Virus genome (UHGV): UHGV-0116964
DNA: 41,926 nucleotides
DNA from: a virus
Reading direction: 5' to 3' (one strand)
Part shown: positions 18,385 to 21,824 of the stretch, piece after piece
Layout: every line of letters starts with the position of its first letter
Numbering within the stretch: position 1 is the first letter of the stretch
The notes under the pieces: generated by a model
Told to the model about the DNA's origin: nothing
The model's input: only the letters and a program-made list of their open reading frames with translations
Databases searched by the model: none
Made by a program: the position numbers and the translations under genes

Positions 18385-18547
18385 AACACCCCAGCCAGAT
18401 TTACCCGATCCGTTTACGTGGGGAGCAAGCCTTAACCTGAATGTTGCGTTGTTGTCAGCGTTAGCACAGTGCAACAGGGATAAGGCTGATATCAGGACTT
18501 TCGAGAACAACAGGGCAGGACAAACAGATGGCACGATTAAACGTTGA
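18269..18547 (+). CDS. Rz1-like o-spanin lipoprotein, nested in Rz in another frame
   Basis: Internal ATG of track ORF 18203..18547; MMIVLFVLCLLAQLSGC lipobox; proline-rich. Confidence 0.7.
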   Translation: MMIVLFVLCLLAQLSGCTTTRTVYVPVPVVPLPANLTAETPQPDLPDPFTWGASLNLNVALLSALAQCNRDKADIRTFENNRAGQTDGTIKR

Positions 18548-18713
18548 AGTTATCCCACCAGACAGCGAGGTGCTGAACGGGATTTTTGCAGAGATTGAGC
18601 GCAAATATGCGCGTCAGCCGCTGACGCCAAAAGTAATTGATGAAATGCAACGCGAAGCGACGCGCCTTGTACGGCGAATGATAACCACAAAGGTTACGTT
18701 CGTCCGGGACTGA
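18528..18713 (+). CDS. Hypothetical small protein
   Basis: Track ORF; weak SD. Confidence 0.35.
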   Translation: MARLNVEVIPPDSEVLNGIFAEIERKYARQPLTPKVIDEMQREATRLVRRMITTKVTFVRD

Positions 18714-18767
18714 CATTACAGAAGCCCTTCACTGAGGGGCTTCGATAATGGAGCACTGGGATTATTC

Positions 18768-19388
18768 ATGAACAGACCACACCCACCAGCGCATTTTACG
18801 ATGCCACCTGACCCGAAGCCTTACATCAGCATAATGCCCGCCATTGACGTTGGCGAGTGGCTGAATCAGCACATCCTGAGCGATGAGGGTGACCTCTACA
18901 ACCCTGACCACCAGCATTTGCTTGAAGCGGATCTGTGCTTTCTCTGGGCGTCGAACACTTTCGAGAAGAAAGGGCGGTCCGTGCTGGGGCAGGCGGAAGA
19001 AGTGGCAATGCGGGCTGGAGGCTGGCAGAAAGCGCGGATGGAGCAGCAGATGTATGAATGGTTCGGCAGGGTGCCGCAGTTCATCATCACGCTGGCCGCC
19101 GATTACTGCTCGCAATGTTCCGATCTGGAATTCTGCGCGCTGATAGAGCACGAGCTTTATCACATCTGCCAAGCGACAGATGAATTTGGTGTGCCGAAGT
19201 TCACGCAGGAAGGGCAGCCAAAGCTGAAGCTGCGCGGCCATGACGTGGAAGAGTTTGTGGGCGTGGTTCGCCGTTACGGTGCGAGCCGTGATGTGCAGGA
19301 AATGATTGATGCGGCGAATCAGCCAGCGGAGGTTGCTCATCTCGATATTGCCAGAGCTTGCGGGACGTGCATGCTGCGACTGGCTTAA
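18768..19388 (+). CDS. Putative HExxH metallopeptidase-like phage protein
   Basis: 206 aa; IEHELYHI contains HExxH; cysteine pairs (CSQC, CGTC). Confidence 0.45.
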   Translation: MNRPHPPAHFTMPPDPKPYISIMPAIDVGEWLNQHILSDEGDLYNPDHQHLLEADLCFLWASNTFEKKGRSVLGQAEEVAMRAGGWQKARMEQQMYEWFGRVPQFIITLAADYCSQCSDLEFCALIEHELYHICQATDEFGVPKFTQEGQPKLKLRGHDVEEFVGVVRRYGASRDVQEMIDAANQPAEVAHLDIARACGTCMLRLA

Positions 19389-19418: not shown

Positions 19419-19892
19419 ATGGCTGCATTAAAACCTGATGTGAAAGCCTTCATCATTCAGTCGCTTGCGTGCTATGACACGCCGACGCAGGTGGTTGAGG
19501 CTGTCCAAAAAGAATTCGGGATCAAGATCACCCGCCAGCAGGCTGAATCTCACGACCCCACGAAGGCCAGCGGTAAGACGCTCGCCAAAAAGTGGATCGA
19601 GATGTTCCACGCTACGCGCGAACGGTTCCTGACCGAAACCAGCGACATTCCGATCGCGAACAAATCCTATCGCCTCCGCGTGCTTGACCGCATGGCAACC
19701 AAAACCGAGGGGATGAAAAACTTCTCCCTGACGGCGCAGCTGATTGAACAGGCCGCGAAAGAGGTTGGCGACGCTTACACCAATAAGCTGAAGGTTGAAA
19801 GCACTGGCAAGGATGGCGGCCCGATCAAGACCGAGACGACCAACCTCACCGCAGATCAGGCCGCAGAGATTTACCGCAAGATGATGGGGTGA
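19419..19892 (+). CDS. Putative terminase small subunit
   Basis: 157 aa; immediately upstream of the large terminase; family not confirmed. Confidence 0.45.
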   Translation: MAALKPDVKAFIIQSLACYDTPTQVVEAVQKEFGIKITRQQAESHDPTKASGKTLAKKWIEMFHATRERFLTETSDIPIANKSYRLRVLDRMATKTEGMKNFSLTAQLIEQAAKEVGDAYTNKLKVESTGKDGGPIKTETTNLTADQAAEIYRKMMG

Positions 19893-19917: not shown

Positions 19918-20130
19918 CTAGGCTTGTTTTGGTCGAGTAATACGGCCAAGAGCTTTAATTGCAGCGACTTTGACGTTGTGATTTAGATCCGAAGATAAAT
20001 CAAGTAAGCGATTTACATGAGCTGGCGTTGCTGAAGCACTCTCGCCGAGAGCATAAATTGCAGACAATTTTACTTCGTTGTTAAGGTCGTTGGTTAATTC
20101 CAACAACTTAGCGCTAACTGCTGGTGTCAT
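19918..20130 (-). CDS. Antisense HEAT-repeat mini-protein (~70 aa)
   Basis: Internal ATG of track ORF 19918..20178; perfect AGGAGG SD 4 nt upstream; two repeats of the form NxxVKxxAIxALGxI (PBS-lyase HEAT-like). Confidence 0.55.
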   Translation of the reverse strand: MTPAVSAKLLELTNDLNNEVKLSAIYALGESASATPAHVNRLLDLSSDLNHNVKVAAIKALGRITRPKQA

Positions 20131-20201
20131 AAAACCTCCTGTAATTGGTACATAAACAATATCAACTTTGTTACGCAAAAACTCAATGCCTGGAATTGTT
20201 T

Positions 20202-21824
20202 ATGCCTCTGCCGTTTGAATTCGATTTCAGAAACCCTGATTACCAGATGGTTTTTGAATGGCGGATGGAGCGCTTACAGCGCATTCGCCAGAACCCTGAA
20301 ATGCTGCCAGCACTAAAGCAGTTTTACCGCACCAACCCGGCACAGTTCATCATCGACTGGGGTATGACTACTGACCCGCGTAACATCGATTATGGCCTGC
20401 CGGTCACAATCCCTTTTCTGCTGTTCCCGAAACAGGAAGAGTGGATTCACTGGATCATTGAGCGGCGCGAACGACTGGAGAACGGCATCACCGAAAAGAG
20501 CCGCGAAATGGGGCTCAGTTGGACCGCGATCGGGCTGGCCTGCTCGCTTTGTCTCTTCAACAAAGAAATGGTTATCGGTTTCGGCTCCCGTAAAGAGGAA
20601 TACGTCGACAGCACCGGTGACCCGAAGGCGCTGTTCTGGAAGGCGCGAAAGTTCGTGGAAACACTGCCCATCGAGTTTCGTGGTTCGTGGGACGAGAAGA
20701 AGCATGCGCCGTATATGCGCGTTGAGTTTCCAGATACTGGCGCGGTTATCAAAGGCGAGGCTGGCGACAATATCGGACGTGGTGACCGTACCACGCTCTA
20801 CCTGGTGGATGAAGCTGCATTCCTCCAGCGTCCTCTGTTGATTGATGCGGCGCTGTCGCAAACCACCCGTTGCCGTATTGACCTGAGCTCGGTTAATGGC
20901 ATGGCGAACCCGTTCGCGCAGAAGCGCCACGGCGGAAAAATACCAGTATTCACGTTCCACTGGCGAGATGACCCGCGCAAGGATGAAGAGTGGTATCGCA
21001 GGGAGTGCGAGAAAATCGACAATCCGGTGGTGGTGGCGCAGGAACTTGACCTGAACTACAGCGCATCTGCGGAAGGCGTCCTGATCCCGTCCGACTGGGT
21101 ACAGGCTGCCGTCGACGCGCATATCAAACTTGGTATTCAGCCAACGGGCAAGCGACTGGGCGCGATGGACGTCGCCGACGAAGGCCGGGACAAAAATGCC
21201 TTTTCGACCCGTCACGGCTTCCTTCTGGAGAACGTGCGTGAATGGTCCGGCGTTGGCAGCGACATTTACCAGTCTGTTGAGAAGGTCTTCGGCTTTTGCG
21301 AACAGGACAACCTCGAAGAGTTTCGCTTCGACGAGGACGGCCTGGGTGCTGGCGTTCGCGGCGATGCGCGCGCCATCAACGAACTGCGTTACGCAGCGCG
21401 CCGACCGTCAATACTCGCCACACCGTTTCGTGGTAGCGGCGCGGTATTTGATCCGGACGATGAAGCGGTGCGCGGGGACAACGGACAGGCCGCACGCCTG
21501 AACAAGGACTTCTTCGCCAACGCCAAGGCCCAGAGCTGGTGGTGGCTACGCAAGCTTTTCCAGAACACCTATCGCGCCGTGGTTGAGGGCATGGCCTACA
21601 ACCCGGACGAAATCATCTCAATCAGCAGCGCCATGGCGAGCAAAGACAAACTCATCATTGAGCTGTCGCAGCCGACCTACTCCATTAATGGCGTGGGGAA
21701 AATCGTTGTTGATAAACAGCCTGATGGCACCAAGTCGCCGAACCTCGCCGACTCGGTGATGATCAGCTACGCGCCAATGAATTCAGCCCTGAACATCTGG
21801 GAGCTGCTAGGGAGACAGGCCTGA
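20202..21824 (+). CDS. Terminase large subunit
   Basis: Track ORF 20145..21824 (TTG); ATG at 20202; YLVDEAAF Walker-B-like and DVADEGRD nuclease-like motifs; precedes portal. Confidence 0.7.

Follow-up and report, generated by a model that had tools for sequence, protein, structure and literature searches.

The gene at 18768..19388 of the window (the whole stretch of virus DNA that was analysed, positions 1-41926) encodes a protein of the PF18894 metallopeptidase family and, judged from sequence comparison, is inherited together with the DUF2280 gene that follows it as a two-gene unit, not as a stray passenger. The partner gene occupies the position of the small terminase subunit, and we consider the chances even that the protein is a late cytoplasmic zinc metallohydrolase that works alongside the small terminase of the DUF2280 type when packaging is initiated.

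The gene and the motifs of its product comprise:

18768..19388, plus strand, gene of the PF18894 protein, ATG to TAA, 206 aa
18900..18917, plus strand, NPDHxH block, N45-P-D-H48-Q-H50, candidate half of a second metal site
19107..19118, plus strand, C114-S-Q-C117, a lineage-specific CxxC of enterobacterial relatives
19149..19163, plus strand, HExxH motif, H128-E129-L-Y-H132, within IEHELYHI, residues 126-133
19236..19256, plus strand, GHDxEE block, G157-H158-D159-V-E161-E162-F163, 26 residues past HExxH and just before the helix 164-170
19359..19370, plus strand, C-terminal CxxC, C198-G-T-C201, conserved family-wide

The earlier note had described a 206-residue open reading frame (ORF) at 18768-19388 that carries IEHELYHI, had called its product metallopeptidase-like and had placed it between lysis and packaging genes; the ORF was found exactly so, a profile search identified the product as PF18894 "PhageMetallopep" (E=5.9e-43), and the placement holds, with the lysis cassette and a 61-aa ORF upstream and DUF2280, the large terminase subunit (TerL) and the portal gene downstream. 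The annotated ATG is supported by the N-terminal RPxPP (R3, P4, P6 and P7), which is conserved in homologues. An opposite-strand ORF of 192 residues (18762..19340) is without support and was treated as a shadow ORF. With a pI of 5.1, a net charge of about -12 and no hydrophobic stretch, the metallopeptidase-family protein is acidic and is predicted to be soluble and cytoplasmic.

The match to PF18894 is full-length (profile positions 2-134 of 134), reaches 146.6 bits against a cut-off of 23.7 bits and is the sole Pfam match of the protein at E<=1. Taken alone, HExxH is weak evidence because the string arises in 2.8% of shuffles of the PF18894 protein from the window; conservation in homologues and the score against the Pfam profile make it more than chance. 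The protein passes the gathering threshold, carries the conserved HExxH and is of phage or prophage origin, as expected of the family. As an annotation, an HExxH metallopeptidase-like phage protein is ordinary, the family being already known and curated. Clustered at 90% identity it comprises 3,246 groups, and at 50% identity 885. Homologues are present in 144 phage records and over 580 viral contigs, and the sources that carry a name belong almost entirely to Proteobacteria and their phages, including Enterobacterales, Pseudomonas, Acinetobacter, Burkholderia, Vibrio, Rhizobium/Ensifer, Sphingomonas and Sideroxydans. A search of NCBIfam with the window protein gave no match. The literature searched for PF18894, phage metallopeptidase, DUF2280, COG4900 and JBD44 yielded no functional study, nor was a published peptidase assay found for the PF18894 family; a 2026 paper lists a PF18894 gene of Burkholderia phages among accessory genes.

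Escherichia coli LR-33 carries the same DNA (99.9% identity over 1.5 kb), where the RefSeq product is "putative metallopeptidase" WP_001619345.1, and among 5,426 complete E. coli genomes 170 have the region, with the gene under the same RefSeq name. Over the stretch tested, Citrobacter phage Omnitron (41,923 bp) is 97.5% identical to the window. The window opens with an integrase ORF (4-1242) and continues through RecE/RecT, replication, antiterminator, lysis, packaging and contractile-tail-like genes, an order that matches the prophage beside kch in E. coli LR-33; scans of the whole window for tRNA genes and Rfam families gave no match.

The immediate neighbourhood of the gene comprises:

18528-18713, plus strand, 61-aa basic ORF, pI 9.5, matching phrog_12811 end to end (E=2.1e-35), hypothetical in RefSeq
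18721..18743, plus strand, hairpin with a 10-bp stem and a 3-nt loop, inside the 54 nt that separate the 61-aa ORF from the metallopeptidase gene, at the lysis/packaging boundary
19419..19892, plus strand, DUF2280 gene, 157 aa, pI 9.1, PF10045 at E=9e-50, beginning 30 nt past the metallopeptidase stop
19918-20178, minus strand, HEAT-repeat ORF, 86 aa, Pfam HEAT_2 at E=3.3e-8, RefSeq 'HEAT repeat domain-containing protein'
20145..21824, plus strand, TerL, PHROG 2 'terminase large subunit' at E=2.4e-31, RefSeq 'TerL protein'

The upstream side carries two holins, a GH19 endolysin, Rz with an embedded Rz1/LysC and the 61-aa ORF, which overlaps the end of the Rz1/LysC reading frame, and the downstream side carries DUF2280, the reverse-strand HEAT ORF, TerL and the portal gene. 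The TerL ORF as called begins at a TTG 57 nt before the RefSeq start (20202), and its product found no match in Pfam-A at E<=0.01. The DUF2280 protein is annotated as 'terminase small subunit' in the record of Burkholderia phage Magia and is listed under 'unknown function' in PHROG 546; a PDB search with it gave no meaningful match.

The order of the metallopeptidase and DUF2280 genes is preserved across a wide range of divergence. Among 80 close viral loci, whose metallopeptidases are 72-100% identical to the window protein, a same-strand DUF2280 gene comes next in 79 and lies further downstream in the remaining one, and a first pass over all 80 gave a gap of 12-33 nt between the two genes. 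In 101 distant loci DUF2280 is the next gene in 83, and a further 10 have it no more than 1.2 kb away. The order metallopeptidase, DUF2280, TerL is found in Pseudomonas phage JBD44 (gp16-gp17-gp18) and Acinetobacter phage Acba_13, and separate gene calls with Pfam labels recover PhageMetallopep, DUF2280 and TerL in metagenomic phages and in prophages of Ensifer, Sideroxydans and Sphingomonas, with the portal called in four of five. Counted by genus in 50,697 phage records, the two genes occur equally often, for example 62/62 in Acinetobacter, 44/44 in Pseudomonas, 8/8 in Vibrio and 7/7 in Burkholderia; in records linearised at the terminase (Oslo, Magia), DUF2280 is the first gene and the metallopeptidase the last. 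At least three loci have no DUF2280 (L004, L116 and L132): there the next gene is a different short ORF, with the N-terminus MARGGKRPGAGRK or a close variant, followed by TerL, and this ORF looks like another small-terminase type.

The two proteins also diverge together. Pairwise identities of the metallopeptidases correlate with those of the DUF2280 proteins (Pearson 0.80, Spearman 0.81) but not with those of TerL (Spearman 0.07). When two metallopeptidases share at least 70% identity, their DUF2280 proteins are at least 50% identical in 98% of pairs, whereas their TerL-position proteins fall below 25% identity in 68%. A long ORF stands at the TerL position in 159 of 163 loci. BLASTP leaves these ORFs in three or more unconnected clusters (66, 56 and 26 members), and their Pfam types vary, (i) Terminase_3, (ii) Terminase_6N/6C or (iii) none. 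TerL keeps the third place in this gene order, but its lineage, as these clusters portray it, is exchangeable. DUF2280 proteins are conserved over their first ~125 residues and variable at the C-terminus; together with the three or more unrelated TerL clusters that follow, this variability suggests a recombination junction inside or just after DUF2280. In the literature searched no description of the tight metallopeptidase-DUF2280 unit was found, the gene being treated as accessory.

The dependence is one-sided, and it holds for a large subfamily that includes the window protein. A set of 181 near-identical Salinibacter ruber phage records carries DUF2280 and gives no tblastn match to the metallopeptidase, so DUF2280 can function without the metallopeptidase; in Salinibacter phage 4_20 (locus L183; OR896284.1, 2932-3980) the ORF upstream of DUF2280 encodes a hydrophobic 172-aa protein with no Pfam match. 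The most divergent members of the family, at 32-35% identity (Bordetella phage PHB04 and loci L099, L101 and L102), are not adjacent to a terminase.

The region upstream of the unit is variable, with 84 clusters of neighbours in 87 distant loci, a count that the crude picking of ORFs may inflate. In several prophages a ~400-nt non-coding gap precedes the metallopeptidase gene, which marks it as the first gene of the late structural operon. Its GC content in the window (0.57) resembles that of the packaging genes (0.55-0.61), the lysis genes lying at 0.50-0.53. The hairpin at 18721-18743 folds with -25.5 kcal/mol for a 71-nt context (z = -5.97); it is not a canonical terminator because it has no U-tract, and the promoter and terminator scan around the gene stayed at background level and did not call it. 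Exact copies of the hairpin occur in the closest relatives only, in locus L039 about 500 nt further upstream, and it may be an RNA-stability or module-boundary element. On the other side of DUF2280, the region of the HEAT ORF has a GC content of 0.425, the lowest of the profiled 16.5-22.5 kb and a real compositional outlier, and the ORF matches the PADLOC HEAT-ARM model weakly (E=1.7e-4). TerL starts ~760-810 nt past the metallopeptidase stop in the window and ~500 nt past it in related loci with the same TerL type; given this longer distance, the HEAT ORF looks like a passenger that splits the terminase gene pair.

These features of the locus bear on a different reading, in which the protein would be a host- or defence-directed protease that cleaves a bacterial protein late in infection, for host takeover or anti-defence, and whose gene would stand at the lysis/packaging junction only because inserted genes are tolerated there. 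Its position at a module boundary behind highly variable neighbours, the accessory status given to it in the literature, the Salinibacter phages that have DUF2280 without a tblastn match to it, the location of its most distant relatives elsewhere, and the reverse-strand HEAT ORF, which displays the capacity of the region to take up passenger genes, all speak for such a role. Passengers, however, are usually patchy, whereas this gene has stayed immediately ahead of the small-terminase gene in some 90% of the roughly 180 loci, points the same way as DUF2280 with 12-33 nt between the two, shares the GC content of the packaging genes and has co-diverged with DUF2280 while TerL was swapped. In addition, the PADLOC defence models gave no significant match to the window protein, the best (E=0.013 over 30 residues) not being meaningful. 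We regard this host-directed role as rather unlikely.

The residues that define the protein were examined in an alignment of full-length homologues, 128 diverse sequences with 35-55% identity to the window protein, which discloses the family signature NPDHxH ... HExxH ... GHDxEE ... CGxC. The motif on which the earlier note had built its reading is kept in 127-128 of the 128 sequences (H128 and E129 in 128/128, H132 in 127/128). The GHDxEE block retains H158 in 128/128, D159 in 93% and E161 in 97%; the NPDHxH block retains N45 in 88%, H48 in 126/128 and H50 in 123/128; and at the C-terminus C198 is kept in 127/128, G199 in 98% and C201 in 113/128. The "paired cysteines" of the earlier note are only half right: C198xxC201 is family-wide, and C114xxC117 is not a family feature, its cysteines being found in only 24-25 of the 128 homologues and invariant in 15 close (enterobacterial) relatives. 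From this pattern we infer that H128 and H132 are zinc ligands and that E129 is the general base, or catalytic glutamate; the candidate for the third zinc ligand lies in the GHDxEE block and would be H158, or D159/E161. The cluster of H48/H50 and C198xxC201 is probably a structural zinc site or a tether of the C-terminal tail; alternatively, C198xxC201 may belong to a tail that reaches the active site.

An AlphaFold2 model built with a 132-sequence alignment is of very high confidence (mean pLDDT 95.3, pTM 0.88, with pLDDT dropping to 86 and then 56 across the last 16 residues). The predicted structure displays a zincin core, comprising (i) a beta-sheet, (ii) a backing helix and (iii) an active-site helix with HExxH, and so provides the fold that the earlier note had left to a structure search. 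Neither objection that the earlier note had foreseen, a missing zincin-like fold or a motif not conserved among homologues, is thus borne out. The protein superposes on minimal zincins over ~88 residues in each case, nearly all of these roughly 105-residue enzymes. Foldseek gave no significant match in the PDB (best E 0.79) and found in BFVD only other "putative phage metallopeptidase" proteins together with weak matches to Bacillus phage G; sequence and profile searches of the PDB with the window protein likewise returned no meaningful match. The model thus predicts a zincin core inside a protein about twice the size of a minimal zincin, with no close solved relative.

Comparison with the minigluzincins or mini-zincins (projannalysin 4jix, proabylysin 4jiu, selecase 4qhf and Acel_2062 3e11) highlights a common core fold, but no sequence similarity to the window protein, even with a profile at E<=10. 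The minigluzincins are archaeal or bacterial cellular proteins that consist of a stand-alone catalytic domain of ~100 residues, whereas the window protein, encoded in a phage packaging module, has 206 residues, adds N-terminal (1-55) and C-terminal (165-206) elements that bear H48/H50 and C198xxC201, and has its candidate third ligand 26 residues past the motif; it therefore stands outside that group.

Another reading would make the protein a DNA-dependent protease of the SprT/Spartan/Wss1 kind, which would strip covalently or tightly bound proteins from concatemeric phage DNA so that the terminase can load and translocate. Members of those families display a SprT-like or WLM signature and a DNA-binding element, whereas the window protein has neither: no SprT-like or WLM Pfam match was found at E<=1, and the protein is acidic (pI 5.1) and without a helix-turn-helix extension. 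The next invariant histidine lies 26 residues past HExxH, and the corresponding spacing in Spartan and Wss1 is much shorter; moreover, other minimal zincins score above Spartan in the structural comparison. We hold this role to be improbable. Still less probable, in our judgement, is a non-peptidase function for the predicted fold and its candidate metal-binding residues, either as a zincin-fold hydrolase that acts on nucleic acid, like YbeY, or as a non-catalytic zinc-binding factor of terminase assembly.

A transposase, as the PHROG 513 label has it (also on the records of JBD44 gp16, phiPSA1, ZF40, VBM1 and PHB04), was rejected on domain content, no transposase or DNA-binding domain being found in the window protein at E<=1, and a lysis accessory enzyme, as the position behind the lysis cassette of the window might suggest, was rejected since neither a signal peptide nor a membrane segment is present in the protein and the gene does not consistently adjoin lysis genes; both are extremely improbable. 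About 25% of the diverse homologues carry an N-terminal extension of 50-115 aa, helix-turn-helix-like and with weak, below-threshold matches to HTH_Tnp_1, and the 'transposase' label probably stems from this similarity. The PHROG 513 and GenBank label is almost certainly wrong and merits correction. The proposal that the extension is a fused DUF2280 was rejected (hhalign probability 0.25%), and phages with an extended homologue still carry a separate DUF2280 gene. A prohead protease was rejected on context, the downstream head module having candidates of its own, a 'phage minor head protein' and a DUF2213 gene.

An accessory role in packaging is the most likely one because the gene heads the conserved block and is inherited as a unit with DUF2280. 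The earlier note, which had seen no obvious lysis or packaging component in the protein and had proposed the cleavage of host or phage regulators, is partly supported: family, motif and fold stand, and the gene is now tied to its small-terminase-position neighbour by order and co-divergence. The analysis establishes to which family the protein belongs, that its motif is conserved, which fold is predicted for it, and how its gene is ordered and has diverged with DUF2280; the metal ligands, the peptidase activity, the link with packaging and any substrate are inferred. The protein would be a catalytically competent zinc metallohydrolase, presumably a peptidase, built on a minimal zincin core and soluble in the cytoplasm. 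Its gene, the first of the block metallopeptidase, DUF2280 and TerL, would be transcribed together with the late packaging genes, and the enzyme would assist DUF2280-type small terminases when DNA packaging begins.

The simplest mechanism would be the cleavage or trimming of the small-terminase-like partner, by analogy with ImmA/IrrE. In ImmA/IrrE-type systems, the protease cleaves its adjacent DNA-binding partner, and the ICEBs1 ImmA/ImmR and Deinococcus IrrE/DdrO pairs resemble the present one in that the gene of a small HExxH protease adjoins the co-inherited gene of a small basic, probable DNA-binding protein. The resemblance is one of arrangement: ImmA/IrrE belong to another Pfam family, the window protein has no Peptidase_M78 match at E<=1, the gene order differs, and the partner is a repressor in those systems and a small-terminase-position protein here. 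Alternatively, the enzyme may clear away a protein that obstructs the packaging substrate.

Proteolysis is well known in phage head maturation; we know of no case in terminase function. Tentatively, and with more doubt than confidence, the PF18894 proteins may form a class of terminase accessory factors that has so far escaped notice. Each would be a zinc metalloprotease paired obligatorily with the DUF2280-type small terminase, in many Proteobacteria phages, and would control packaging initiation by cleaving the small-terminase-like protein or one that occludes the packaging site. The fixed partnership with DUF2280 makes the function of this large family (885 clusters at 50% identity) experimentally approachable. 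Should the link be functional, DNA packaging in many temperate phages that infect Enterobacterales, Pseudomonas, Acinetobacter, Burkholderia, Vibrio and Rhizobiales would include a regulatory step that is new.
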